Source: a virus
Taxonomy: Duplodnaviria; Heunggongvirae; Uroviricota; Caudoviricetes
Reading direction: 5' to 3' (one strand)
Virus record (IMG/VR): IMGVR_UViG_2548876954_000011
Length of the DNA: 37,865 nt
The notes under the pieces were generated by a model. That model was not told where the DNA came from. It did no database searches and saw nothing but the letters and a program-made list of their open reading frames with translations. Shown piece after piece: positions 1-16,174 of the stretch (positions are counted from its first letter, which is position 1; the number at the start of each line of letters is the position of its first letter). Position numbers and translations under genes: made by a program.

Positions 1-1032
1 TCAAAAACTTGCTATTGATGTTGGTAGTGTTGCCAGCGGATTAAACCGTAATGCAGTTTCCAGATGATCTGGTGCCAGATGTGCGTAACGCATAGTCATT
101 TTTATATCGTGGTGTCCGAGAATTTTTTGTAAGGCGAGAATGTTTCCACCCGACATCATGAAGTGCGCCGCAAACGTATGGCGCAGAACGTGTGTGAGTT
201 GACCGCGAGGGAGCACGATAGACGTTTTTTCCATCACGGATAAAAATCGAAAATAGCAGTCTGTGAAGAAATTGAACCCATCAAGCGCCATGATCTCTTC
301 GTAAAGCTCTTTACTGATAGGGATGCTTCTGTTTTTCTTCCCCTTCGTTCTTACAAAGGTAATTCGGTATTTGGTCACCTGTGAGCGGGTAAGATTTACG
401 GCTTCACGCCAGCGTGCGCCTGTGCTTAAGCATATCTTAACTACCAGTGCCAGAATTGGGTCCTGACGTTTGCAATCAGCCAGTAATTCAACAATCTGCT
501 CATGGGTAAGCCATGCCATCTCTTTTTCTGCGATGGTGAATTTTCGCATGTTCTCCAGTGGGTTCGGATACGACCATTCGCCCAGGCGGGATAGTTCGCT
601 AAAAACACTACTTAGATAGCTTTGCTCCAGGTTAATGGTGACCGGGCTTGCTCCTTTCTTCCATTTCTCGCTGAAGTAGATCTCTCCTGTCAGGCGTTTA
701 TCTCGATAGTGGGCAAACATTTTAGATGTGAGATCGGTTGCAAGGGGATTGCCCAGAGCGTCAACCATCAACAGCAGTTTGTCATAGACATGCTGGCCAG
801 CTGTCAGAGATTTACCATGTAGTTTGAACCATAGTTCAACCACGTCTTTCAGTGTTCGACGATCCACTGATTCGCCCAGCCAGGGCTTTGCTTCGGTTTC
901 TTCCATCGTGTGACGCTCAAAAGCCAGAGCTTCGCCTTTGGTGGCGAATTGTTTACGCACACGACGTCCGCTACGTCCGGCGGGGTAACATTCGCAAAGC
1001 CATTTTCCTGTGGTGAGTTTTCGTACTGCCAT
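1..1032 (-). CDS. int: Tyrosine site-specific integrase (P2/186 Int family)
   Basis: 343 aa; C-terminal catalytic region ...HVLRHTFAAHFMMSGGNILALQKILGHHDIKMTMRYAHL (R-H-R-Y type); stop codon is window positions 1-3; position next to the repressor as in 186. Confidence 0.9.
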   Translation of the reverse strand: MAVRKLTTGKWLCECYPAGRSGRRVRKQFATKGEALAFERHTMEETEAKPWLGESVDRRTLKDVVELWFKLHGKSLTAGQHVYDKLLLMVDALGNPLATDLTSKMFAHYRDKRLTGEIYFSEKWKKGASPVTINLEQSYLSSVFSELSRLGEWSYPNPLENMRKFTIAEKEMAWLTHEQIVELLADCKRQDPILALVVKICLSTGARWREAVNLTRSQVTKYRITFVRTKGKKNRSIPISKELYEEIMALDGFNFFTDCYFRFLSVMEKTSIVLPRGQLTHVLRHTFAAHFMMSGGNILALQKILGHHDIKMTMRYAHLAPDHLETALRFNPLATLPTSIASF

Positions 1033-1113: not shown

Positions 1114-2091
1114 TCACTTTTGGGTAACAATGTCATCATTTGCTGCTGATTTTTTATCTGCAAGTGTGCCTAGAATGTTAAATAAATTTGGAGGTGGCTG
1201 CGTTTTATCTGCGAATGCAGAATTAGCTGACATGTTCCAATCTTTAAACACATCAATAGCATCTTGTTTTGTCGCAGTTGAACCATAAATTTGTAAGAAG
1301 ACCTCACCAAACATTAGAGCGTGTTGTCTGTCTTTTCTTATGATTGCTTCATGTGTGTATTTTTTTGAATTGTTTAAACAAAAATAAGAAAGCCAAGAAA
1401 GTAATGCAACCCCAAGTAAGCCCCTAGTGAAATAATAAAAAAGTTCAATGGGGGTGGCGTCTTTTATATCTATTTTATAGAAAAATGTTAAAAAGGCGGC
1501 ACTTATAGATAATAATGATAAAAGTATTCCGGCTATCGCCCAATTGTAAGACATTGCAGTGAAATCCTTATCGTCCTGATGTAATTTTGCTTTGACACCC
1601 TGCACATATTCAGGAACTTTTTCGTCAATTTTATTTTGTTGAATTTTGCTTGAAAGTTTTTGGTTTTGAAGCTTTAACTCTTTGTTTTGGGCGTGTTGGA
1701 GTTTTAGCTGTGATGCTAGTTTTTCTTTACTGTCCATTGCAGTTAATAACTCTATCTGCAACTTGTTGAATTGGTCTAACTGCGAATTATGGCTTTTTTG
1801 AAACTCGCGTAGTTTATGTTCTAACTCATCAATTTTTAAAAGGTACTTATCTGCTTCACTGTTTTGCAATGATGTATGGTCAGGCATGAAGGACTCATAC
1901 ATATATTTTTTTTTAGAAAAATTTCGACTGTAAGCATCAAGCAGTATATCGAATTCATCAAACTCTAGAGAATCCAATAGGTTTTTCAAAGTATTATAGG
2001 TGTCATTAGATAAATGTGATTTTAATTCTCCTAATTTAATACTTCTAGACGTATATTTTTCACTATTACTTTTATAATCAGAACCACTCAT
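1114..2091 (-). CDS. Hypothetical coiled-coil protein with two predicted transmembrane helices; cargo gene inserted between repressor and integrase
   Basis: 325 aa ORF; Lys/Glu/Gln-rich heptad-like N-terminal half (…LQIELLTAMDSKEKLASQLKLQHAQNKELKLQNQKL…), hydrophobic segments AIAGILLSLLSISAAFLTFFY and GLLGVALLSWLSYFCL; visibly AT-rich compared with the phage backbone; same strand as repressor and int. Confidence 0.6.
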   Translation of the reverse strand: MSGSDYKSNSEKYTSRSIKLGELKSHLSNDTYNTLKNLLDSLEFDEFDILLDAYSRNFSKKKYMYESFMPDHTSLQNSEADKYLLKIDELEHKLREFQKSHNSQLDQFNKLQIELLTAMDSKEKLASQLKLQHAQNKELKLQNQKLSSKIQQNKIDEKVPEYVQGVKAKLHQDDKDFTAMSYNWAIAGILLSLLSISAAFLTFFYKIDIKDATPIELFYYFTRGLLGVALLSWLSYFCLNNSKKYTHEAIIRKDRQHALMFGEVFLQIYGSTATKQDAIDVFKDWNMSANSAFADKTQPPPNLFNILGTLADKKSAANDDIVTQK

Positions 2092-2103
2092 TCCAATATC
2101 CTT

Positions 2104-3048
2104 TTATAATTCTTCTATCAGAATAAAATTGCATTTTGCAATAACATCAATATCTGAAATTTTACATTCAAATGATAAATCATTGTCTGAAATTTTTAAT
2201 CTTCCTACAGGAATTCTAGTTAGGGTTCGAATGCTCACTTTCCCTTCTATTTCAACAATCCATTTACCATCTGTAATTTCATCGAATGATTGATTACATA
2301 GGTATGTTTTTTTTTCGGTGCTAACAATCAATGGTAATTGGATTGAGTCTGGTAGTAATGCTTTATCAAGCATATAGAAATTTGAATCAAATAGATTCCC
2401 GTCAGTAATTTTTTTGTGAGTAATAGCAATTACATCATTTCTTGCATCGTCAAACTTTGGGCCTTTACCAGTAGTTAGCCACATTAGTGAAGTACCCGTT
2501 TCGAGAGCGCACTTAATTATCCAGTCTGAAGGAAAAACATCACGCATATATCTTGTGGCTAATGTGCTTTTTGAAATACCTAAGTGATCAGCTAAGGCTT
2601 GGCGAGTCTTATAACCGTAAGCCCTAACAATTCGCTCTATTGCTTCCTTGCCACCCCGAGAATAATCAATGGTGTTTTCATTATCGAACTTTGGTTGTTT
2701 ATAGTGAACGTCATGATAAGAACCATCTTCGGAGTGTGTTTCAACATGCTGTTCTGGTGAAGGGGATGGCATTTGTTCGTCATCATCTGAACCAAATGCT
2801 AGCCATTTAATTGATGCTCCAGTTTCCATTGAGCAGATAACAACCCAATCTGCAGGAAATGTATCGCGGGCATATCTGTTAGCCATCGTGCTTTGGGAAA
2901 TACCTAGATGGTTACAGAATGCTTGGCGTGACTTGAAGCCATAAGCCATGAGTATCCGCTCGATTACTTTCTGACCACCGCGATTTTGTATGACAACGGC
3001 TTTCATATCGTCATCAATATGGCGAAATGTGAATTTTTGAGTTGACAT
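2104..3048 (-). CDS. CI-type immunity repressor candidate with two tandem CI-like HTH domains plus a C-terminal domain
   Basis: 314 aa; residues ~24-86 (GGQKVIERILMAYGFKSRQAFCNHLGISQSTMANRYARDTFPADWVVICSMETGASIKWLAFG) and ~132-194 (GGKEAIERIVRAYGYKTRQALADHLGISKSTLATRYMRDVFPSDWIIKCALETGTSLMWLTTG) are about 60% identical to each other and look like the phage CI-repressor N-terminal domain; divergent from the Apl/Cox-like gene, i.e. in the cI position of 186. Confidence 0.65.
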   Translation of the reverse strand: MSTQKFTFRHIDDDMKAVVIQNRGGQKVIERILMAYGFKSRQAFCNHLGISQSTMANRYARDTFPADWVVICSMETGASIKWLAFGSDDDEQMPSPSPEQHVETHSEDGSYHDVHYKQPKFDNENTIDYSRGGKEAIERIVRAYGYKTRQALADHLGISKSTLATRYMRDVFPSDWIIKCALETGTSLMWLTTGKGPKFDDARNDVIAITHKKITDGNLFDSNFYMLDKALLPDSIQLPLIVSTEKKTYLCNQSFDEITDGKWIVEIEGKVSIRTLTRIPVGRLKISDNDLSFECKISDIDVIAKCNFILIEEL

Positions 3049-3136
3049 ATTCTTTATGTGAACCTATTCTCCGTTTTGTGATGTTGTTATCACGATTAAA
3101 ACCAGCTCACCACAAGCTAAAAGGAGATGTTGCATC
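3049..3136. promoter_or_regulatory. Divergent lysis/lysogeny switch region (pL-like and pR-like promoters and operators expected)
   Basis: 88-bp intergenic region between the divergent repressor and Apl/Cox-like genes; AGGAG Shine-Dalgarno at 3122-3126 ten nt before the ATG at 3137. Individual operators were not resolved. Confidence 0.4.
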
Positions 3137-3358
3137 ATGACCCCTAACATTTCAATAACTCTGAATACGCCACATGTCACAATTGAGCGTTATAGCGAAC
3201 TTACTGGTCTTTCAATCGACACAATCAACGATATGCTGGCTGATGGCCGCATCCCTCGACATCGTCTCCGGAAGGACAAGAAAAGAGAAAAGGTAATGAT
3301 CAACCTTGCTGCTCTTACCGTTGATGCACTTACTGATTGCAATGTTGTATTCAACTAG
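3137..3358 (+). CDS. Small Apl/Cox-like excisionase or early regulator
   Basis: 73 aa basic protein, first gene of the rightward early operon, divergent from the repressor; family assigned from position only. Confidence 0.45.
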
Positions 3359-3390
3359 TTCCATTTTGGGATATGTCAGGGGTGTCGACC

Positions 3391-3900
3391 ATGTTTGATT
3401 ACCAAGTTTCCAAACATCCACATTTTGATGAAGCCTGTCGTGCATTCGCACTGCGCCACAATCTGGTGCAACTGGCAGAACGTGCAAGCATGAATGTGCA
3501 GATTCTGCGGAACAAGCTGAACCCAGCTCAACCTCATTTATTAACCGCACCAGAAATCTGGCTGCTTACCGATCTGACTGAAGATTCAACGCTGGTAGAT
3601 GGTTTTCTGGCACAGATTCATTGTCTGCCATGTGTACCGATTAATGAGGTGGCAAAAGAGAAACTGCCACATTACGTCATGAGTGCAACCGCAGAGATCG
3701 GGCGTGTTGCTGCAGGTGCGGTATCTGGCGATGTAAAAACCAGTGCCGGTCGTCGTGATGCCATCAGCAGCATTAATTCTGTAACACGACTGATGGCGCT
3801 GGCGGCTGTTTCATTGCAGGCCCGTTTACAGACTAACCCTGCGATGGCGAGTGCAGTTGATACTGTGACTGGCCTCGGTGCTTCATTCGGTTTGCTGTGA
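3391..3900 (+). CDS. 186 CII-like regulatory protein
   Basis: ATG at 3391 gives 169 aa ([49 protein letters not shown]…), which matches my recollection of the phage CII (CP76-type) family and the length of 186 CII; the ORF-track start at 3337 is in frame but probably upstream of the true start. Confidence 0.7.
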
Positions 3901-3907
3901 GGTGCTT

Positions 3908-4204
3908 ATGCTGACGAAAGAACCATCATTTGCATCGCTGCTGGTAAAACAAAGCCCGGCAATGCACTACGGTCACGGCTGGATCATGGGAGAGGATGGT
4001 AAACGCTGGCATCCATGTCATTCACAAGATGAATTGCTGTCTGAATTGACCACGAGAAAATGGAGAAAGTCCAAATGTATGCGGCAGAAAGTGAAGTGGT
4101 TTATCAGTTTCGTTACAGAGGGGAGAGTTATTCAGTACCTGAAGATGATTTGCTCTGTTGCTATCCGTCGTTGTCGGGCGATGGTAGCTACTTTTTCACG
4201 CTAA
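3908..4204 (+). CDS. Hypothetical early protein (extent uncertain)
   Basis: ATG at 3908 within the 3878-4204 ORF; N-terminal ~50 aa look protein-like, C-terminal part is W/C/R-rich and overlaps the better-looking 4060-4299 ORF in another frame. Confidence 0.3.
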   Translation: MLTKEPSFASLLVKQSPAMHYGHGWIMGEDGKRWHPCHSQDELLSELTTRKWRKSKCMRQKVKWFISFVTEGRVIQYLKMICSVAIRRCRAMVATFSR

Positions 4205-4299
4205 AGGATGGAACCTTTATACGTGGTGAAAAAGTACAAGAAGTGATGCGTATAAAGACATCACCTCTTGAATGTTATCGGCGAAGTATTTATCGGTAA
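4060..4299 (+). CDS. Hypothetical early protein
   Basis: 79 aa ORF with a balanced composition (MEKVQMYAAESEVVYQFRYRGESYSVPEDDLL…); position corresponds to fil/dhr-type small early genes of 186-like phages, homology not established. Confidence 0.4.
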   Translation: MEKVQMYAAESEVVYQFRYRGESYSVPEDDLLCCYPSLSGDGSYFFTLKDGTFIRGEKVQEVMRIKTSPLECYRRSIYR

Positions 4300-4538
4300 C
4301 GATCTATCAGTGTCTGTATCAGATGAGTGAATTCTTGTTGTTTAACCGAACCTAAAGGAAGTTTGTTTAATTCTTCGCGGAGGAGCTCAAAAAATGCAGA
4401 TTGATTTGCTGAGTCAGTTCGAAATAAGGAGTGGATCAGACCTGAAACAAGAATTCGTTGAACAGCAACCTCATCGCGAAGACTGGAGATCTCGTTTTCA
4501 AGTTGCTCTAAACGCTCTCTTTCAACCGGGTTCAACAT
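4290..4538 (-). CDS. Hypothetical small coiled-coil protein, antisense to the early operon
   Basis: 82 aa (MLNPVERERLEQLENEISSLRDEVAVQRILVSGLIHSL…); AGGAA-type Shine-Dalgarno about 8 nt upstream on the minus strand; AT-rich region. It overlaps a less protein-like plus-strand ORF (4394-4630). Confidence 0.4.
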   Translation of the reverse strand: MLNPVERERLEQLENEISSLRDEVAVQRILVSGLIHSLFRTDSANQSAFFELLREELNKLPLGSVKQQEFTHLIQTLIDRYR

Positions 4539-4619
4539 TGATGATTCCTTCTAGCTATCAATATGTTGGTAATGGATCATATCAAAAATTTTTTAGTAGA
4601 TGTGTTGTGGGATGCATAA

Positions 4620-4961
4620 ATGGCTATTGAAGGCGCTGCGGCGACTGTTCCATTAAGTCCCGGTGAACGCCTGAATGGACTTAATCACATAGCGGAATTA
4701 AGGGCGAAAGTATTTGGCCTGAATATTGAGTCAGAGCTTGAGCGGTTTATTAAAGATATGCGTGATCCACGGGATATCAATAATGAACAAAATAAACGGG
4801 CACTGGCTGCCATATTCTTTATGGCAAAAATTCCAGCTGAACGTCATAGCATCAGCATTAATGAGCTGACCACTGACGAAAAGCGGGAGCTGATTAAAGC
4901 AATGAATCATTTTCGTGCAGTGGTGAGCTTATTTCCCAGACGGCTAACCATGCCGAATTAA
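4620..4961 (+). CDS. Hypothetical protein
   Basis: 113 aa ORF in the AT-rich part of the early region; no recognisable motif. Confidence 0.4.
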   Translation: MAIEGAAATVPLSPGERLNGLNHIAELRAKVFGLNIESELERFIKDMRDPRDINNEQNKRALAAIFFMAKIPAERHSISINELTTDEKRELIKAMNHFRAVVSLFPRRLTMPN

Positions 4962-5028
4962 CCAACTAATGAAATTAATGGCGTAAACCCGCCGGGCATC
5001 CCTTTATCTAAATTCAGGAGAATTGATT

Positions 5029-5262
5029 ATGCGTAATATTGAAATCCTCACGACTAAAACCGGACCGGATGACGCAGGGCTTAATATTTTACTGACAGAG
5101 GCTCGTCTGGAAGAACGTCGGGCAAGGGCTGAAGCAATGGCAGCTCGCCTTGATAGCCTGGCGTGTCATATCACATCCCGCCAGCTAAACCACGTCGAAG
5201 CGGCAGAACTGCTGCGTGTAACTGCTGAAGCAATCCAGAACGAAGCGCAGGAGATCCACTAA
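5029..5262 (+). CDS. Hypothetical small early protein
   Basis: ATG at 5029 preceded by AGGAG (5016-5020); 77 aa; its stop overlaps the next start (TAATG). Confidence 0.5.
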   Translation: MRNIEILTTKTGPDDAGLNILLTEARLEERRARAEAMAARLDSLACHITSRQLNHVEAAELLRVTAEAIQNEAQEIH

Positions 5263-5788: not shown

Positions 5789-6642
5789 GTACCATCCTGA
5801 AATGGGCGGGTAATAAAACTGCCATTATGTCCGAACTGAAAAAACATCTTCCTGCTGGCCCGCGACTGGTTGAACCTTTCGCGGGTTCCTGTGCTGTGAT
5901 GATGGAGACGGATTACCCCAGCTATCTTGTTGCGGATATTAATCCTGATTTAATCAACCTCTATAAAAAGGTTGCTGCTGATTGCGAGGCGTTTATATCT
6001 CGTGCCAGAGCTTTATTTGAGGAAGCAAACAGGGAGTTGGCTTATTACAACATAAGGCAGGAGTTTAATTACTCCACTGAAATTACTGATTTCATGAAAG
6101 CGGTATATTTCCTGTATCTCAATCGTCATGGTTACCGTGGGTTATGTCGTTATAACAAGAGCGGGCATTTCAACATTCCATACGGTAATTATAAAAATCC
6201 GTATTTCCCTGAAAAAGAAATTCGCGCATTTGCAGAGAAAGCCCAGCGAGCAACGTTTATCTGCGCCAGCTTTGATGAAACGCTGGCGATGCTGCAGGTG
6301 GGGGATGTGGTGTATTGCGATCCGCCTTATGACGGTACGTTTTCCGGCTATCACACTGACGGCTTCACTGAAGATGACCAGTATCACCTGGCATCTGTTC
6401 TTGAATATCGATCATCAGAAGGTCATCCAGTCATTGTTTCTAACAGTGACACATCCCTGATCCGTTCGCTGTATCGAAATTTCACTCACCACTACATCAA
6501 GGCAAAACGCAGCATCGGCGTGTCGGCTGGCGAGAGTAAATCTGCAACAGAAATCATCGCTGTTTCCGGGCCGCGCTGCTGGGTGGGATTTGATCCTTCG
6601 CGTGGCGTGGATAGTTCTGCCGTGTACGGAGTGCGTGCATGA
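5785..6642 (+). CDS. dam: DNA N6-adenine methyltransferase (Dam family)
   Basis: [23 protein letters not shown]…EPFAGSCAV (AdoMet motif) and [11 protein letters not shown] (DPPY catalytic motif); about 285 aa. Confidence 0.85.
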
Positions 6643-9053
6643 GCCATGCTGATATGAACAACTGCAGCGGCTTTAACGAGGCCGCCGCAGCATTCTCATG
6701 GAACAGCCCGAAAAAGGCTATTAACCCTTATCTGGACCCGGCGGAAGTTGCGCCGGTTTCTGCGCTTTCAAACCTGATCACTCTGTACGCTGCCGATAAC
6801 GAGCAGGAACAACTGCGCCGCGAGGCACTGAGTGATCAGGTCTGGGAGCGTTATTTCTTTAATGAATCCCGTGATCCTGTCCAGCGCGAAATGGAGCAGG
6901 ATAAGCTCATTAGCCGGGCAAAGTTGGCGCATGAGCAGCAGCGTTTTAACCCGGACATGGTCATTCTGGCAGACGTTAACGCCCAGCCTTCCCATATCAG
7001 CAGGCCGCTGATGCAACGTATTGAATACTTCAGCAGCCTTGGCAGGCCAAAGGCTTATTCCCGCTATTTGCGTGAGACGATTAAGCCATGTCTGGAACGG
7101 CTGGAGCATGTACGCGACAGTCAGCTATCCACTTCTTTTCGCTTTATGGCAAGCCATGAAGGGCTGGACGGCCTGCTGATTCTGCCTGAAATGAGTCAGG
7201 ATCAGGTGAAACGCCTGTCCACCCTTGTTGCTGCGCATATGAGCATGTGCCTTGATGCAGCTTGTGGCGATTTGTATGCCACCGATGACGTTAAGCCAGA
7301 AGAAATCCGCAAGACATGGGAAAAGGTGGCAGCAGAAACCCTGCGACTGGATGTCATACCGCCTGCGTTTGAGCAACTCCGCCGGAAAAGAAACCGCCGT
7401 AAACCCGTGCCCTATGAACTCATTCCGGGTTCGCTGGCGCGTATGTTGTGCGCCGACTGGTGGTACCGGAAATTATGGAAGATGCGTTGCGAATGGCGGG
7501 AAGAGCAGTTGCGTGCTGTTTGCCTGGTCAGCAAAAAAGCATCTCCCTATGTCAGCTATGAAGCCGTGATGCATAAACGTGAGCAGCGCCGTAAGTCGCT
7601 GGAGTTTTTCCGTTCTCATGAACTGGTGAACGAAGACGGCGACACGCTGGACATGGAGGATGTGGTAAACGCCAGCAGCAGCAACCCTGCGCATCGCCGC
7701 AATGAGATGATGGCCTGTGTTAAAGGTCTGGAGCTTATCGCGGAAATGCGCGGTGACTGCGCCGTTTTCTACACCATCACCTGTCCGTCACGTTTCCATT
7801 CCACGCTAAATAACGGCAGGCCCAACCCGACCTGGACAAATACGACGGTAAGACAAAGCAGTGATTATCTGGTCGGCATGTTTGCTGCATTTCGTAAGGC
7901 GATGCACAAAGCCGGATTGCGCTGGTATGGCGTGCGGGTGGCTGAGCCGCATCATGACGGTACAGTTCACTGGCACCTGTTGTGTTTTATGCGCAAAAAA
8001 GATCGCCGCACCATTACTGCTTTGTTGCGTAAGTTTGCCATTCGTGAAGACCGCGAGGAGCTGGGTAATAACACAGGACCACGCTTTAAGTCTGAGCTGA
8101 TAAACCCGCGCAAAGGTACGCCAACAAGCTACATCGCGAAATACATCAGTAAGAACATTGACGGGCGTGGTCTGGCTGGCGAGATCAGCAAGGAAACGGG
8201 TAAATCCCTGCGTGATAACGCTGAATACGTTAATGCCTGGGCGTCTCTTCATCGTGTTCAGCAATTCCGCTTCTTTGGCATTCCGGGGCGTCAGGCTTAC
8301 CGTGAACTGCGATTGCTGGCTGGTCAGGCGGCAAGGCAACAGGGGGACAAAAAAGCAGGTGCGGCGGTACTGGATAACCCACGCCTTGATGCCATCCTGG
8401 CTGCTGCTGATGCTGGTTGTTTTGCCACCTACATCATGAAGCAGGGCGGCGTACTGGTTCCCCGCAAATATCACCTCATCAGAACCGCTTATGAAATCAA
8501 CGAAGAGCCGACCGCCTATGGCGATCACGGCATTCGTATTTATGGCATCTGGTCACCCATTGCAGAGGGCAAGATCTGCACTCATGCAGTGAAGTGGAAA
8601 ATGGTTCGTAAGGCCGTTGACGTTCAGGAGGCGGCAGCCGACCAGGGCGCTTGCGCCCCTTGGACTCGTGGCAATAACTGTCCCCTTGCTGAAAATTTGA
8701 ACCAACAGGAGAAAGATAAATCAGCTGATGGGGACACCAGAACGGATATTACCCGCATGGATGACAGGGAGTTGCACGATTACCTGCACAGTATGAACAA
8801 AAAAGAGCGCCGGGAACTGGCTGCAAGGTTACGTCTGGTGAAACCGAAACGGCGTAGAGACTACAAACAGCGAATTACAGACCATCAACGACAGCAGCTC
8901 GTCTATGAACTGAAGTCCAGAGGATTTGATGGCAGCGAGAAAGAGGTCGATTTACTCCTTCGCGGCGGCAGTATTCCATCAGGAGCAGGCTTGCGTATCT
9001 TCTATCGGAACCAGCGTCTGAAGGAAGATGATAAGTGGCGGAACCTGTATTAA
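6639..9053 (+). CDS. A: Replication initiation endonuclease (P2 gpA-like rolling-circle initiator)
   Basis: 804 aa; HUH-type motif [10 protein letters not shown] (around 7963-7992) and active-site tyrosine region YIAKYISK (around 8131-8154); position after dam in the early operon. Confidence 0.9.
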
Positions 9054-10052: not shown

Positions 10053-11135
10053 ATGATAAACGTTACAAACGAAATGCTCATTGATGTTGTCAGTGATGCT
10101 CTTACCGGGAAGAGGGAAAGTCTCCTCATGCGGTTGCGGATTATGGCAAAAAAACTAAAAAAAGAATCTCCTGAATTAGCGGGTAAATTAGAAGATTTAC
10201 TTATTAATACAGGTGGCGCAATTGCAGTCGAAAGGGCTAATCCAGTTGTTCCTAAAATAACACCTGTTGATGCGGATACAAGACAAAAGCTGCTAGTTGA
10301 AACATATCCTGTGGTCATTGATGTTGAACCTGTTTGGCCAACAAAAACTGATGTTCAACTGAATCGATTTGTGGCTGAGTGGGAAATGAAAGAACGCCTT
10401 TATAAAGAAGGGTTGCATCCGTCCAAATCTCTTCTTATGGGAGGACCACCCGGTGTGGGGAAGACTTTGGCTGCAAAGTGGCTCGCTTTTAAACTCGATA
10501 TGCCATTGTTAACATTAGATCTCGCAAGTGTAATGAGTAGCTACTTGGGGAAAACGGGTAATAATATTAAGGCAGTCCTCAATTATGCTTCGTCATTCCC
10601 TTGTGTACTGCTTCTTGACGAATTTGATGCGATTGCTAAAAAAAGGGATGATGCAACAGATGTTGGAGAACTAAAAAGATTAGTTACAGTATTATTGCAA
10701 GCAATTGATGAATGGCCAAATACGTCTGTTCTTATAGCAGCAACTAACCATGCGGAGCTGCTTGATCCTGCTGCATGGAGAAGATTCGATCGAGTTATTG
10801 ATTTTGAATATCCAACACAAGACCTAATGAGAAGATATCTCTGTTCTAAAAATATTGGAGATAGCTTATCGTACTATATTGCTACAAAACTCGAAAAAGT
10901 TTCATATGCAGTTCTTGAGAGAGCTATAAATCAAGCTAAAAGAAATGCCATTATAGAAGATATTCCTTTAAGTTCAGCTTTAATTGATGAGTTGTTAGAT
11001 GGCGTGTCACTTGATGATGTTATAAAAAACATGTCAAACAACAATGTATCACAAAGAAAAATCGCTTTAGATTTGGGGATTTCAAGGTCACAAGTACGTA
11101 AGGTTTTGACGGTTGAGGATGAAGACAATGAATGA
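10053..11135 (+). CDS. AAA+ ATPase (IetA-like), first gene of the cargo cassette
   Basis: 360 aa; Walker A GGPPGVGKT (around 10440-10466), Walker B LLLDEFD (around 10610-10630); C-terminal HTH-like segment SQRKIALDLGISRSQVRKVL; AT-rich; stop overlaps the protease start (ATGAATGA). Confidence 0.85.
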   Translation: MINVTNEMLIDVVSDALTGKRESLLMRLRIMAKKLKKESPELAGKLEDLLINTGGAIAVERANPVVPKITPVDADTRQKLLVETYPVVIDVEPVWPTKTDVQLNRFVAEWEMKERLYKEGLHPSKSLLMGGPPGVGKTLAAKWLAFKLDMPLLTLDLASVMSSYLGKTGNNIKAVLNYASSFPCVLLLDEFDAIAKKRDDATDVGELKRLVTVLLQAIDEWPNTSVLIAATNHAELLDPAAWRRFDRVIDFEYPTQDLMRRYLCSKNIGDSLSYYIATKLEKVSYAVLERAINQAKRNAIIEDIPLSSALIDELLDGVSLDDVIKNMSNNNVSQRKIALDLGISRSQVRKVLTVEDEDNE

Positions 11136-13320
11136 TAAAAATATGCTTCTTGGCTATGGTGAAACACTAACTAACCCTGTTAAACTTAACAGAGGTGGAG
11201 GTGAAAAGAATAAACCTTACTCTTATTCAGAAAATAAACCAGTGATATCTGCTCAACTGGAAGAGTTGATTGAGGAAATTAATACCCTTCCATTGTTAGC
11301 AATGCCTGAAGGTAAGGCTGTAGCAAAATTTGTTTTGCATCCGGCATTCTTAGCAAAAAGTTATTTTCCAGTAAGTCTTTTTGAGCGATTTTCCCTAGAA
11401 AGCATAGGCAGTAAGGCTGTAAAAGTAAAACCTAGAAAAGATATTAAAAAAAGAGGGCGAAAAGAGGAATACACTACAGCGTGTATTTATGTTTCTGGCA
11501 AAAAAGAAAGTTTTCAATCATTCTTAGACTCTGTAAATCAAGATACCCTAACGAAAGGGCAGCAAAATGATTTTGTCACCTTAGAAAATATTTCAATACT
11601 GGAAGTTTCAGATAAAGTAAAAACGATTAATAGCAATGAAGTTATGAGTATTGAGGTCGCCTTACATACTCCTGATACAAGTTCCTCTATTGTCGATAGT
11701 TTTGAAGTTTTTGCTTCGCAAAATGGTGCTGTTATAGATAAGGCAAGAAGTATAAAGGTTAAGGGGCTAACCTTTATGCCTATTAAGGCTAGTAAAGATG
11801 TAGCTTTAAAAGTTGCAGAGTTTTCATTTCTCAGGACTTTGAGAGAACTTCCTGAATTAAGGCTAAGTGAGCCTGTTATATCACGTTCTGTGATTCAAAC
11901 ATCTAACCTTAGTTTACCATCTGAAGGAGCGGTAAACCCACATATAAAGGTTGCCATATTCGATGGTGGATTGGGGATCGATGATTTCAATCCTTGGGTA
12001 ACAGAGTACACTTTCAACGGTAATGCTAGTACTAATGCAAAACTTCTTTCTCATGGACAAGATGTCACCTCTACTGTGTTATTTGGTGTTCTTGGCTCTG
12101 AAACGGAAAAATTAAGTGTTCCTTATTGTAATATTGACCATTATCGTGTACTGGATTCCAATGTTAATAACTCAGATGTCGATCTTTTTGACGTTCTGAT
12201 CCGTATTAAAAGTGTATTAGAACAAAAAAAATATGATTATATCAATCTGAGCTTAGGACCTAGATTACCTGTTGATGACGATGACGTGCATGTGTGGACC
12301 TCAACTCTTGAGGAGATACTTGCATCAGGAGAAACACTTTGTACTGTCGCGGTTGGAAATGATGGTCAGCTGCCTGCCAAGTTAAATCGAATTCAACCAC
12401 CTGCTGATTTAGTTAATGGTCTGTCAGTAGGTGCAGCAACCTCTTTATCTGATAGTTGGGAAAGATGTTCTTACAGTTGTATTGGTCCTGGACGAAGCCC
12501 TGGCTTTGTGAAGCCTGATGGAGTTGCATTTGGAGGACATTCTGATGAGCCATTCCAGGTATACAGCCCTATGGTTAATGGTCTTGCCCGCACTGCGGGG
12601 ACTAGCTTTTCAGCTCCATTAGTCCTGAGGCAAGCAATCGCGTTAAGTGCTTCTCTAAATTACAACATTACACCACTTACGGCTAAAGCTCTGCTTATAC
12701 ATCATGCGGAGAGCAATAATATCAATCGTGCTGAAGTTGGTTGGGGACGATTTCCTCATGATCTTAGTGAAGTAATATTTTGTGATGATGATGAAGTTAA
12801 AGTTATATATCAAGGTACTTTAAAACCATCACAACACATGCGAGCACCTATTCCGTTTCCAGATGTACCTATGCGTGGATGTGTAAATTTAAGAGCGACA
12901 TTCTGCTTTTCCAGTCCTGTAGATGCGGAACATCCTTTGAATTATACAAGAAGCGGTCTAGAAGTAACCATGAGAAAAGGTGTTTCAGATAGTTCCGGGT
13001 TAACGTTTCCTCTTTTTAATCTAAAAAATGTTTATGCAGATGAAAATGAGCAACGTGTTGATGCACATAAATGGGAGACTACGTTAAGAAGTGAACACAA
13101 ATTTAAACCGAATGAGCTGACAAACCCATGCTTTGATATTATCTACTATGGTAGAGACTGTGGTATGCCTATTGATGTTGACGAGTTAGAAGAACTACCA
13201 TATGTTCTTGTCGTGACTTTATCTGCTGAAGAAATGCCGGATTTATATAACCTAATTAGGCAGAAATATCAAACCTTACAGCCTATACAAGTTCAACAGC
13301 AAATTATGTTACGTACTTAA
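11128..13320 (+). CDS. Subtilisin-like serine protease (peptidase S8 family, IetS-like), probably cytoplasmic
   Basis: 730 aa from the ATG at 11128 (GAGGA about 9 nt upstream; in-frame alternatives at 11113 and 11119); S8 catalytic motifs in the right order: D in VAIFDGGLG (codon 11962-11964), H in LSHGQDV (12052-12054), oxyanion N in AVGNDGQ, S in AGTSFSAP (12604-12606); no N-terminal signal peptide evident. Confidence 0.85.
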   Translation: MNDKNMLLGYGETLTNPVKLNRGGGEKNKPYSYSENKPVISAQLEELIEEINTLPLLAMPEGKAVAKFVLHPAFLAKSYFPVSLFERFSLESIGSKAVKVKPRKDIKKRGRKEEYTTACIYVSGKKESFQSFLDSVNQDTLTKGQQNDFVTLENISILEVSDKVKTINSNEVMSIEVALHTPDTSSSIVDSFEVFASQNGAVIDKARSIKVKGLTFMPIKASKDVALKVAEFSFLRTLRELPELRLSEPVISRSVIQTSNLSLPSEGAVNPHIKVAIFDGGLGIDDFNPWVTEYTFNGNASTNAKLLSHGQDVTSTVLFGVLGSETEKLSVPYCNIDHYRVLDSNVNNSDVDLFDVLIRIKSVLEQKKYDYINLSLGPRLPVDDDDVHVWTSTLEEILASGETLCTVAVGNDGQLPAKLNRIQPPADLVNGLSVGAATSLSDSWERCSYSCIGPGRSPGFVKPDGVAFGGHSDEPFQVYSPMVNGLARTAGTSFSAPLVLRQAIALSASLNYNITPLTAKALLIHHAESNNINRAEVGWGRFPHDLSEVIFCDDDEVKVIYQGTLKPSQHMRAPIPFPDVPMRGCVNLRATFCFSSPVDAEHPLNYTRSGLEVTMRKGVSDSSGLTFPLFNLKNVYADENEQRVDAHKWETTLRSEHKFKPNELTNPCFDIIYYGRDCGMPIDVDELEELPYVLVVTLSAEEMPDLYNLIRQKYQTLQPIQVQQQIMLRT

Positions 13321-13358: not shown

Positions 13359-14408
13359 CTATGTTGATTGTGGGTCATCGTTTATTAAGTTATATTTTTC
13401 AAAATGGATAATATTAATTCCTAACCATTCATTAAATTCCTGTAATCGTTTTTGTAAAGGCATTAATTCATTTCGAACAAACACTCGACTCGCCTTCTCC
13501 ACATCCCCAAACCCCCCAACATTATTCGGCATAATCCCCATCATTTGCGGCGGCACACGATGCGCTGCCATCATGTCATCGCGGCTGACATTTTTGATAT
13601 TCAGAAACTCATCCTTCGCCGCGACTTCTGACAACGGGATGATCTGAAGCCCGTCCTTTTTGCCGTTAGGCGAGTACATAAACAGGTTGCGGAAGTTGCC
13701 AGGGCCTTTGGCGCTTTTCATCGCATTGCGGAGGTTGTTCACATCCTCCTGGTTCTGCGCGGCATCGGTCATGTACATGATGAAGCCTGCATGACTGCCG
13801 TTAATGTAATACTTGCGGCGGAACAGCGTGGCGGACTCGTTGAGCAGGGCTGATGGAATGGCAGAAAGATAACCTGGCAGGCCGTAGATCTCCTGGTTGA
13901 TGTCCGGTTCCATCAGATGAAAAATGCTGCCTTTCGTGAACTGATACGGCTGGGTTGTCATACCGTATTGCACAAACCAGTAGGTATCCAAGTCTAACCC
14001 GCGTCGGGTGTATTTTGCCAGAGCAGGCTCAAGGGCGATAACTTCACCGAAGCGGTTCGTGCGTTTCTCCAGGTAGGCGTTACCAAATACCAGATAGTCC
14101 TGCACAAAACGTGAAAAAGCCTGCTGGCTGAGCAGCGGGTGAGGGATGTAGGTACTGGTCAGAATGTTGCATTTCACCGCAATTGGTGAACTGTGATGCA
14201 CGGCGGCGCGGAAGGTGCGCGCCAGTCCGTCAAAGCTTACTGGCGGCTCATACCAGCGATCTGTCTGTACGCATTCCACATAGTCCAGCAGTTCGCGGCG
14301 GTCCAGAACAGGAACGGGATCGCCGAAGCTGAATGCCTCTGCTGAAGTCTGGCTTTTATGCTGGGTCTGGTTCTGCGACGCAGCGCGGTTCTTCTTACTC
14401 TTTCCCAT
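13359..14408 (-). CDS. Q: Portal protein (P2 gpQ-like)
   Basis: About 349 aa; first gene of the leftward late operon, overlapping the terminase stop (TGATG); length and position match P2 Q. Confidence 0.85.
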   Translation of the reverse strand: MGKSKKNRAASQNQTQHKSQTSAEAFSFGDPVPVLDRRELLDYVECVQTDRWYEPPVSFDGLARTFRAAVHHSSPIAVKCNILTSTYIPHPLLSQQAFSRFVQDYLVFGNAYLEKRTNRFGEVIALEPALAKYTRRGLDLDTYWFVQYGMTTQPYQFTKGSIFHLMEPDINQEIYGLPGYLSAIPSALLNESATLFRRKYYINGSHAGFIMYMTDAAQNQEDVNNLRNAMKSAKGPGNFRNLFMYSPNGKKDGLQIIPLSEVAAKDEFLNIKNVSRDDMMAAHRVPPQMMGIMPNNVGGFGDVEKASRVFVRNELMPLQKRLQEFNEWLGINIIHFEKYNLINDDPQST

Positions 14409-16174
14409 CAAAAAATCTCCACAATATTGCTGGTATTGGCGGACTCGCCCTGCAGCGGTTCGTTAAACAGTGCGTGCATTGTTGCCCAGGCCAGATCGGC
14501 ATGGCTGGCTTCTTCGCTGCGGCTGGCTTCATAGGTCGGGCGGTTGCCGCTGGCGGTGGTGGCGCGACGGATTGCCATAAATGACTGCGCTATGTCGGTG
14601 TGTCCGGCGTCAAACTCCAGACGACGGTGACTGATAATGTCGTAGGCTTTGAGTACCAGGGCGTTTTTAACGTTGGGGTTGTAGACAAACTCCCGGACGG
14701 CAGGAAAGAACGCTTTCACGTTCTCGTAAACCCCGTGACCAACACCTGTCGAGTCGATGCCGATGTATGTCACGTTGTACTGTTCGGTCAGTTTTTTGAT
14801 GGCGTCAGCCTGGGCGCGGAAGTCCATCCCGCGCCACTGGTGACGCTCAAGAATGCGGAACTTACCGCCCGGCACGGCTGGCGGTGCCACCACCACGCAC
14901 CCGGCGCTGTCGCCGTTTTGCGTACCTTTTGCCGGGTCATAACCGATCCATACTTCGCGCCAGCCAAACGGGCGCAGGGCCAGTGCATGAAAGTCGGTCC
15001 AGACTTCCCAGCTGTCCACCATGCACGCCTGCAGCTCGCTGAGCGGGAACACGGACGCGAGATCGTCCACGAACTCGCACATCAGCAGGTTCTGGTATTC
15101 GTCCGGGCTGTACTCCATGCGCAACTGGTCAAGGTCGAACAGGTTACAGCCGCCGCGCACCGCATCTTCCACGGTGACTATCTGGCGGTATTGCCCGTCT
15201 GCGCACAGCAGGCCGGGGGCCAGATTGCTATGGGACAGGTCGATGTCCACCTTGTCGGCTTTGTTGCGTCCACGGTTGAACAGCGCACCGGACCAGAACG
15301 GATAAGCACTGTGGGTCAGGCTGGATGGCGTGGAAAAATAGGTTTGTCGCCATTTTTTGTGAATAGCCATACCGGAAGCCACTTTGCGCAGCTCCTGGAA
15401 TTTCGGTATCCAGAAATATTCATCCAGATACAGGTTGCCGTGGTAACTCTGGGCCGTGCGGGCATTGGTGCCGAGGAAGTAAAGCGTGGCCCCGTTGGGA
15501 AGCACCATCGGATCGCCTTTCAGCTCCACCTCCACTTCTTTGGCGAAGTCGATGATGTACTGTTTAAAGACGTGGGCCTGTGCCTTACTGGCGGAAAGGA
15601 AAATCTGGTTACGTCCGGTTAGCAGGGCGTCAATCAGGGCTTCACGGGCAAAATAGAAGGTCGCGCCGATCTGGCGTGACTTCAGCAGGTTGCGGATGCG
15701 GTTGGTTTTTCCGGCTTCCCACCAGTGGCGCTGGTAGTTGAACATGGAGGAATGGAAGATTTCTTCCAGCTTCTCAATCTGCTCATCGGTGAAGACATTT
15801 TTTTCCGGCTGACGGCGCGGGCCTTTGTTGCGGTTGGCGACGTTAGGGTTTAAGTCAGCTTCGTTGCCGCCATTGTTAAACTTGCCGATCCGCGCGTGGC
15901 GCTCAGACTGGCGCGCCAGCAGGTCAATCTCTTTGAAATCTTTCCCTTCTTTGTGCTCCTTCATAATGAGCTGGCAGTAGCGTGCGGCGGTGGTGAGCTG
16001 CATCTGATCCAGCGGCCCATAGTCACCCCACTTGTCGCGTTTTTTCCAGCTGTGAACGGTTGCAACTTTCTCGCCCAGCATTTCAGCAATGCGGGCGACG
16101 CGGTATCCCTGAAAGTACAGCAGCATGGCCTGCCGACGGGGATCGAGATCTGCGGGTGTCAGTGTGGTGTTCAT
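14408..16174 (-). CDS. P: Terminase large (ATPase) subunit (P2 gpP-like)
   Basis: 588 aa (P2 P is about 590 aa); N-terminal HTH-like region, ATPase and nuclease regions; divergent from the O gene. Confidence 0.9.
   Translation of the reverse strand: MNTTLTPADLDPRRQAMLLYFQGYRVARIAEMLGEKVATVHSWKKRDKWGDYGPLDQMQLTTAARYCQLIMKEHKEGKDFKEIDLLARQSERHARIGKFNNGGNEADLNPNVANRNKGPRRQPEKNVFTDEQIEKLEEIFHSSMFNYQRHWWEAGKTNRIRNLLKSRQIGATFYFAREALIDALLTGRNQIFLSASKAQAHVFKQYIIDFAKEVEVELKGDPMVLPNGATLYFLGTNARTAQSYHGNLYLDEYFWIPKFQELRKVASGMAIHKKWRQTYFSTPSSLTHSAYPFWSGALFNRGRNKADKVDIDLSHSNLAPGLLCADGQYRQIVTVEDAVRGGCNLFDLDQLRMEYSPDEYQNLLMCEFVDDLASVFPLSELQACMVDSWEVWTDFHALALRPFGWREVWIGYDPAKGTQNGDSAGCVVVAPPAVPGGKFRILERHQWRGMDFRAQADAIKKLTEQYNVTYIGIDSTGVGHGVYENVKAFFPAVREFVYNPNVKNALVLKAYDIISHRRLEFDAGHTDIAQSFMAIRRATTASGNRPTYEASRSEEASHADLAWATMHALFNEPLQGESANTSNIVEIF

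Follow-up and report, generated by a model that had tools for sequence, protein, structure and literature searches.

Prophages are known to carry accessory genes called morons, such as bor and lom of phage lambda, and convergent gene pairs such as bsrG/SR4 of a Bacillus prophage, a type I toxin-antitoxin system whose transcripts overlap at their 3' ends. The genome record of coliphage 186 annotates interference between the convergent promoters pR and pL, on which work has reportedly been published. An antisense, self-promoted gene, STMMW_20121, was described in prophage ST64B, together with an OOP-like RNA of prophage BTP1 that is antisense to the 3' end of cII and an antisense prophage RNA, STnc6030, with superinfection exclusion in Salmonella; antisense, self-promoted loci of this sort are typically accessory genes expressed in the lysogen (PMC7067206). 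We compared with these systems a small open reading frame (ORF) of 82 amino acids, ORF82, in a 37,865-nucleotide stretch of DNA from a virus of the Caudoviricetes (IMG/VR record IMGVR_UViG_2548876954_000011); this whole stretch is called the window below. Around ORF82, the window holds the immunity and early genes of a prophage like coliphage 186 (Peduoviridae), and ORF82 runs against the early operon, tail to tail with a conserved early gene, ORF79. ORF82 stands outside any defense family, toxin-antitoxin family, or Dhr family, and it comes closest to the prophage accessory genes, or morons. The features on which the argument turns are the following.

4075-4299, plus strand: ORF79 (PHROG 4312), 74 amino acids from the ATG at 4075 and 79 amino acids from 4060
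4210-4645: mosaic segment separating cassette-bearing from cassette-less relatives, delimited by alignment and sliding identity against phage vB_EcoM-813R9
4227-4270, minus strand: terminator-like hairpin, a 13-bp stem (4270-4237) followed by a TACTTTTTCA tail (4236-4227)
4290-4538, minus strand: ORF82, 82 amino acids, PHROG 26925, a "hypothetical protein" in RefSeq (WP_001556502 / WP_000934004 type)
4546-4549, minus strand: Shine-Dalgarno sequence AGGA, its GG(G/A) core kept in the aligned upstream regions
4584-4576, minus strand: putative ORF82 promoter, extended -10 element TGATATGAT, with the hexamer TATGAT at 4581-4576
4620-4961, plus strand: DUF5347 early gene, 113 amino acids, matching PF17282 (E = 3.7e-33) and PHROG 602 (E = 6.2e-56)

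ORF82 is a real protein-coding gene read from the minus strand, a conclusion of which we are close to certain. A first-pass annotation of the window had given an 82-amino-acid ORF at 4290-4538 on the minus strand, a 113-amino-acid ORF at 4620-4961 on the plus strand, and a 78-amino-acid ORF at 4394-4630, also on the plus strand, all with exact coordinates, and had left it in doubt which strand is coding over ORF82. Comparison of codon positions in the frames of both strands settles this for the minus strand. Homologues of the protein with 63 to 70% identity, each likewise of 82 amino acids, from Lelliottia, Klebsiella, and a metagenomic contig, were codon aligned, and the minus frame showed 17/14/51, 22/13/39, and 19/18/42 differences at codon positions 1/2/3 in these comparisons. 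The proportion of synonymous differences (pS) was 0.66 to 0.83 and that of nonsynonymous differences (pN) was 0.17 to 0.22, with a pN/pS ratio of approximately 0.12 to 0.17 where pS was unsaturated. The plus-strand frame of ORF 4394-4630, in contrast, gave pN/pS ratios of 1.3 to 2.3 and an omega above 1.5 and is broken by two to four stops in the homologous loci, in which neither its start nor its amino acid sequence is conserved; conservation does not support the proposal that it is the gene here. The purifying selection in the minus frame is joined by a profile match of residues 1 to 82 to positions 1 to 82 of the 82 in PHROG 26925 (E = 6.5e-57), and the antisense ORF of the first-pass annotation is a genuine gene. 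Its own Shine-Dalgarno sequence, likewise predicted there, was confirmed as AGGA at 4549-4546, 7 nucleotides before the ATG at 4538. In RefSeq genomes of Escherichia coli, the NCBI Prokaryotic Genome Annotation Pipeline (PGAP) independently calls the ORF on the minus strand, under the name hypothetical protein.

The protein family is already catalogued, as PHROG 26925 and as RefSeq WP entries, and is uncharacterized. An exhaustive HMMER profile search of 1.84 billion representatives yielded only about 13 clusters of relatives, and a second profile search added names, for about 13 to 23 clusters in all; these proteins are 79 to 86 amino acids long and all start with ML. The members are all called hypothetical proteins and come from Enterobacterales only, namely, E. 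coli, Klebsiella, Lelliottia, Pseudescherichia, Pantoea, and Pectobacterium. Length and start are kept across 30 to 98% identity. Cluster P0015 is a truncated ORF82 of 33 amino acids; no locus was recovered in viral or genome contigs for cluster P0017, and the context of P0016 was recovered by exact look-up. The AlphaFold2 model of ORF82 has three helices, among them a long N-terminal helix, at a predicted local distance difference test (pLDDT) score of 77.5, and the 9.6-kDa protein is acidic (isoelectric point of 5.3) and has no hydrophobic segment. It has no meaningful match to a Pfam, NCBIfam, or PADLOC family, and the PADLOC families likewise gave no match for ORF79, fil, or DUF5347. Foldseek searches against the PDB and BFVD returned nothing significant, and the best hit of a profile search of PDB sequences had an E value of 0.11. 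Homology searches on the two ORFs of the first-pass annotation thus placed the 113-amino-acid protein in DUF5347 and the 82-amino-acid protein in a conserved family, for which no function was found; the literature search found nothing on ORF82, on the function of DUF5347, or on genes lying antisense within the early operons of 186-like phages.

Putative signals for separate expression flank the gene. The extended -10 element TGnTATGAT lies 43 nucleotides upstream of ORF82, in the 81-bp spacer to the divergent ATG of DUF5347, and would place the transcription start near 4569. In four diverged loci with spacers that are otherwise about 75% identical, its TGnTAT..T pattern does not vary. Ten of 12 distinct loci match the -10 hexamer at five or more of its six positions between -47 and -33 relative to the ATG; shuffled sequences gave 1.2 such loci on average and never more than 6 in 5,000 trials. 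This figure is indicative only because the position window was chosen post hoc and the loci are related. On the other side, a scan picked out a hairpin that begins 20 nucleotides 3' of the ORF82 stop, inside the 3' coding end of ORF79. Folded as minus-strand RNA, it has an energy of -19.6 kcal/mol (z = -5.8), compared with -16.5 (z = -2.7) for the plus-strand RNA, which has no U-run; the stem is kept, but for the exchange of one G-C pair for A-T, in loci L005, L007, L012, L019, and L022. We consider this hairpin the probable terminator of ORF82. Together, the extended -10 promoter, Shine-Dalgarno sequence, ORF, and hairpin with U-tract would make ORF82 a small transcription unit of its own opposite the pR operon. 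A CII-activated antisense promoter like lambda paQ was ruled out, as the CII site is lacking at the ORF82 promoter: no CII half-sites were found near 4540-4640, and the window has a CII site only at pE (3391-3417). A conserved TTGATAGCTA block 3' of the -10 element was considered as a shared operator and rejected, being neither enriched elsewhere nor present in the pR region. Rfam gave no family at the ORF82 unit, and its only match, a sub-threshold CRISPR-DR hit at 3258-3304, is taken as chance.

All of the ORF82 loci examined share one setting. They lie in a 186-like early region, ORF82 is antisense to the operon, and a homologue of ORF79 converges on it at the 3' end, with distances that range from a 10-nucleotide overlap of the called ORFs to a few tens of nucleotides between tblastn matches. 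The pairing holds down to 30% identity in ORF82 and in no fewer than three gene orders. The arrangements are as follows.

cII, fil/ORF79, antisense ORF82, DUF5347: the window, E. coli, Klebsiella, and Lelliottia
cII, ORF79, antisense ORF82, fil, DUF5347: loci L017-L033 and L046
cII, a gap of 103 amino acids, ORF79, antisense ORF82, a gene of 212 amino acids, DUF2732: L034 and L036, and also L035, without the 103-amino-acid gap
cII, ORF79, antisense ORF82, a gene of 108 amino acids, DUF2732: L043, the most distant member, at 30% identity

In L043, the ORF79 homologue was left uncalled but is plainly there, at 3253-3462. The segment with fil and ORF79 is present in 596 of 5,426 complete E. coli genomes, which divide into 65 with the ORF82 cassette and 531 with an empty junction of the vB_EcoM-813R9 type, in which the flanking sequences are contiguous. 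The co-occurrence is therefore one-sided, as ORF82 was never found without ORF79 and ORF79 stands alone in 531 of the 596, and an obligate toxin-antitoxin pair was rejected on this ground.

Comparison with vB_EcoM-813R9 defines what distinguishes the two alleles. The window is 97 to 100% identical to it up to about position 4209 and again from about 4645 on. Between these points, the 3' end of ORF79 is only 50 to 67% identical, about 300 bp comprising ORF82 and its promoter region are absent from vB_EcoM-813R9, and the segment also takes in the first 25 or so nucleotides of DUF5347. With these boundaries, the cassette is exchanged as an allele by recombination in the conserved core of ORF79 and the 5' end of DUF5347. 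Copies of the cassette that are about 99% identical stand behind three different CI/immunity modules. Over longer distances, identity to the window copy ranges from 0.36 to 0.70 for ORF82, from 0.45 to 0.81 for cII, and from 0.34 to 0.85 for the replication gene A; because the divergence of ORF82 parallels that of cII and A, the gene has shared the history of the phage lineage and was not brought in recently. This points to ORF79 and ORF82 as an old, lineage-specific convergent two-gene arrangement that is often lost, and not to a typical, recently acquired moron.

The first-pass annotation described positions 4290-4961 as an AT-rich island, and the G+C fraction (GC) there is indeed 0.414, compared with 0.505 for the window, a weak effect that does not set the segment apart from its neighbors: among windows of the same size, 13.5% have an AT content at least this high. 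The low-GC zone spans approximately 4050 to 5100 and includes ORF82 (0.41), ORF79 (0.417), and DUF5347 (0.442), while the strongest AT-rich islands (GC of 0.29 to 0.36) lie elsewhere, at about 1000-2500 and 10500-13300. The 113-amino-acid ORF does not belong to an island at all; the DUF5347 gene is found in relatives both with and without ORF82. Its match to the domain scores 114.2 bits against a Pfam cut-off of 25 and covers profile positions 1 to 100 of 101, and it is an ordinary, core-like gene of the early operon.

We read ORF82 as a pR-independent, probably lysogen-expressed accessory gene that is functionally tied to ORF79, a composite reading that we hold tentatively and that falls somewhat short of probable. 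Of its two parts, expression independent of pR or in the lysogen is on balance probable, judging from the predicted signals, and the functional tie to ORF79 is a serious possibility that we nonetheless regard as doubtful. As ORF82 is reversed within the early operon and always tail to tail with one early gene, it is probably made in the dormant prophage. In a lysogen, CI would repress pR and leave the ORF82 promoter free to fire, giving a small acidic protein of three helices. Upon induction or infection, strong head-on transcription from pR would turn the ORF82 unit off through transcriptional interference, the effect that pR has on pL in 186; in the window, transcription from the pR-like promoter at 3042-3070 converges on ORF82 about 1.5 kb downstream. 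Both the firing in the lysogen and the shutdown by pR are proposed because of the convergent-promoter behavior annotated for pR/pL in 186 and the behavior of prophage accessory loci (PMC7067206). The 186 promoters are of the same lineage and also set a strong early promoter against a weaker leftward promoter that depends on repression of pR. They differ in that pL drives cI-int and lies 60 to 100 bp from pR, whereas the ORF82 promoter is placed deep inside the operon, about 1.5 kb further on. Because ORF82 is small, acidic, and helical, its product most likely binds another protein and not DNA, and in view of the unbroken linkage, ORF79 or its pathway would be the most economical target. ORF82 may then modulate or counteract ORF79 or the process that ORF79 targets; ORF79 lies in the slot for host takeover, where 186 has dhr. 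In addition, about 340 nucleotides of the early transcript, the final 70 or so nucleotides of ORF79 among them, would be complementary to the ORF82 mRNA, which could have an added antisense effect.

Several observations weigh against this reading. About 89% of the E. coli prophages with ORF79, and also the Edwardsiella prophage, lack ORF82, and since ORF79 is mostly alone, ORF82 is not needed to tolerate it. Adjacency by itself is no proof of a functional link between the two genes, and neither ORF79 nor ORF82 has a sequence or fold match that would give a function. A tblastn search with ORF82 of 50,697 deposited phage records found no homologue. With respect to expression, the ORF82 promoter has no recognizable -35 element and was missed by a scan for consensus -35/-10 promoters, and the most distant locus, L043, has no -10 element at the usual distance. 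A U-run follows the hairpin only in the window and in L019, and cassette-less vB_EcoM-813R9 has a related hairpin (at about 3335-3375) with a different upper-stem sequence, so that the hairpin may belong to ORF79 or to a plus-strand RNA. The rarity of the U-run, the vB_EcoM-813R9 hairpin, and the position inside the ORF79 coding sequence are the reasons for calling the terminator only probable, and a hairpin at the end of ORF79 may act in the early transcript independently of ORF82, perhaps in processing or pausing.

A bolder form of the tie to ORF79, which we think unlikely, is that ORF79 is an early host-takeover or toxic effector and ORF82 its dedicated antagonist made by the prophage, the two forming an unrecognized convergent module of 186-like phages. 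The antagonism would act through the protein, through the 3'-overlapping antisense mRNA, or through both, and head-on transcription from pR would switch the antagonist off at induction. If so, the pair would serve the phage as an inbuilt timer of commitment or would protect the lysogen from leaky expression of early genes. Such a module would recall type I toxin-antitoxin systems, with which ORF79 and ORF82 share convergence within a prophage, overlapping 3' ends, and one partner that is potentially harmful to the host. The differences from those systems are that ORF79, in place of a small hydrophobic peptide, is a soluble, beta-rich protein, that the product of ORF82 is a conserved protein, and that ORF79 is commonly found alone. 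The host-takeover genes dhr and fil of 186 offer a second comparison. The slot between fil and tR1/orf80 holds dhr in the annotated 186 genome and ORF79, ORF82, and DUF5347 in the window; 186 has no antisense gene in it, and ORF79 is dissimilar to Dhr. A BLASTP comparison of ORF79 with 186 Dhr gave no alignment at E values of up to 100, so that position alone is equivalent, and membership of ORF79 in the Dhr family was ruled out with zero sequence similarity detected.

The alternative that survives best, although it is itself rather unlikely, is that ORF82 is a generic moron with a role in lysogenic conversion, superinfection exclusion, or defense or anti-defense that has nothing to do with ORF79, the site being a tolerated insertion point and the association being due to tight linkage. 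The first-pass annotation had seen a typical moron signature here, and part of it stands. As in morons, ORF82 is a small gene in and against a lytic operon, in opposite orientation, with its own Shine-Dalgarno sequence, a conserved -10-like element, and a minus-strand hairpin with a U-run, of which the last two are plausible as promoter and terminator; it would be expected to be expressed under lytic repression, and it shows clean presence or absence among relatives that are about 97 to 100% identical. Antisense, self-promoted prophage genes are accessory loci by precedent (PMC7067206), and ORF79 functions without ORF82 in most relatives. The rest of the signature did not hold. GC is below the genome average but equals that of the neighboring genes, and divergence in step with the backbone does not suggest recent transfer. 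ORF82 is always the convergent partner of ORF79, a partnership kept even where rearrangement has moved fil and replaced DUF5347, and it is confined to 186-like early regions, with no known host benefit. It has no PADLOC match and lies outside the known variable or defense spot of this genome (IetAS), and it lacks a membrane segment such as exclusion proteins commonly have.

Less likely still is a role at the level of RNA or transcription, in which the convergent unit would brake or process the pR transcript, or exclude superinfecting relatives, and the protein would be secondary. The effect would come from collision interference or from a sense/antisense duplex of about 340 nucleotides that includes the 3' end of ORF79, like lambda OOP/paQ, with an exclusion variant resembling the antisense RNA STnc6030. 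The geometry would suit this, as the 3' ends overlap with no space for a terminator between the genes, a hairpin lies within the 3' end of ORF79, and every pR transcript must cross the unit to reach gene A; the OOP-like RNA antisense to the 3' end of cII and superinfection exclusion by STnc6030 provide precedents from Salmonella prophages (PMC7067206). Like the lambda and BTP1 RNAs, the ORF82 unit is convergent in the early rightward operon, overlaps the 3' end of the upstream gene, and would stop at a hairpin there. The likeness to lambda OOP/paQ is geometric only, as the ORF82 transcript would be an mRNA for a selected protein, overlaps ORF79 and not cII, and, having no CII-binding site at its promoter, is not of the CII-activated paQ type; it also has no Rfam match. 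What chiefly counts against an RNA-only role is that it would not maintain protein-level constraint, and ORF82 is under clear purifying selection with synonymous sites near saturation and with length and start kept at 30 to 98% identity.

That ORF 4394-4630 is instead translated in the early operon, or that the segment is noncoding spacer, is effectively refuted: the ORF is of 78 amino acids in the sense orientation of the operon and has a good Shine-Dalgarno sequence (GGAGGAG) 8 nucleotides upstream, but it has no family match, its homologous loci encode unrelated amino acids in this frame, and the Shine-Dalgarno sequence is explained as the reverse complement of conserved ORF82 codons (ELLRE).

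With ORF82 as a pR-independent accessory gene, a 186/P2-type prophage would express a gene against its early lytic operon, and the locus would be a simple natural test bed for interference between convergent transcription units deep inside an operon, next to the well-studied pair pR/pL of 186. Material is at hand, as E. coli W and strain KS-NP019 have the cassette and hundreds of strains have the empty allele. A strand and a family have been assigned to an unnamed protein, and its partner ORF79 is revealed as a widespread early gene; the invariant convergent pairing of the two is the one feature that merits experiment. The practical importance is modest because the function is not established, the family is small, and current understanding is not challenged.

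ORF79 itself is a conserved early gene whose stop overlaps that of ORF82 by 10 nucleotides; it is widespread and has an invariant core, CCYPSLSGD...LKDGTF. It is also entangled with fil. The latter is an open ORF of 98 codons, in which the Fil domain covers only residues 5 to 51, the N-terminal part is 60% identical to 186 Fil, and the last 45 or so codons overlap ORF79 in another frame. In Edwardsiella, a standalone ORF79 lies next to a fil gene of 62 amino acids, without ORF82. RefSeq/PGAP annotation of E. coli calls fil and omits ORF79, and other gene callers do the reverse; ORF79 is missed by RefSeq because the overlong fil ORF masks it, and the annotation gap looks like a consequence of the overlap. 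A frameshift of fil in E. coli W was considered, as PGAP marks the gene "incomplete" there, and was rejected, since the ORF is intact at 98 amino acids. Three ORF79-related clusters (P0040, P0020, and P0043) are fusions with Fil, CII, or Dam fragments, of 122 to 129 amino acids, and presumably arose by deletions or frameshifts in degraded prophages.

The early operon as a whole reads pR, apl, cII, fil, ORF79, antisense ORF82, DUF5347, tR1, DUF2732, zinc finger, ASCH, dam, and A. The ORFs named in the first-pass map of this region lie where it placed them, and the map was incomplete, as it missed fil, ORF79, the tR1-like terminator, and DUF2732 between cII and the zinc-finger gene. The remaining features of the immunity and early region are the following.

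1-1032, minus strand: integrase
2104-3048, minus strand: CI-type repressor, 314 amino acids
3042-3070, plus strand: pR-like early promoter (TTGACA-17-TATTCT), found by promoter scan, at a position matching that of 186 pR between cI and apl
3137-3358: apl/cox-like gene
Downstream of the apl/cox-like gene: cII (PF06892)
3391-3417: 186-type CII site ATGTTTG-N13-CAAACAT (pE), the only such site in the window
3908-4204, plus strand: fil, cell-division inhibitor family, PF10893 (E = 4.7e-23)
4980-5008, plus strand: homologue of the phage 186 terminator tR1, 3' of DUF5347 and before DUF2732
5029-5262: DUF2732 gene
3' of DUF2732 and ahead of A: DksA/TraR zinc-finger gene, ASCH/DUF3850 gene, and dam
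6639-9053: replication gene A

The sequence GGCGTAAACCCGCCGGGCAT at 4980-5008 is identical to the core of 186 tR1, a site that a simple terminator scan did not flag, and early transcripts from pR must traverse the ORF82 cassette before reaching it.

Two assemblies labelled "DH5alpha," NZ_CP026085.1 and NZ_CM135829.1 (4.83 Mb), match a 441-bp cassette query at 99.1%, the same as E. coli W. K-12 derivatives are not expected to carry a 186-like prophage, and the strain label of both assemblies may be wrong. The CI-type repressor at 2104-3048 has a tandemly duplicated N-terminal helix-turn-helix domain, with the two copies reading "...GGQKVIERILMAYGFKSRQAF...WLAFG" and "...GGKEAIERIVRAYGYKTRQAL...WLTTG"; it is 314 amino acids long, compared with 192 in phage 186, and relatives with the same ORF82 cassette have repressors of 216 and 292 amino acids. 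Between the integrase and cI, an AT-rich ORF of 325 amino acids (1114-2091, minus strand) lies in the most AT-rich part of the window (GC of about 0.29 to 0.35) and has no PADLOC match. The same spot holds other genes in relatives, including a KAP NTPase, AAA_15/DUF4435, and OLD-like genes, and looks like a second variable accessory or defense slot. An IetA/IetS anti-phage defense pair (PADLOC IetA, E = 6.7e-84; IetS, E = 1.8e-48) occupies a strongly AT-rich island at 10053-13320, 3' of gene A, between the replication region and a leftward ORF of 350 amino acids at 13359-14411.

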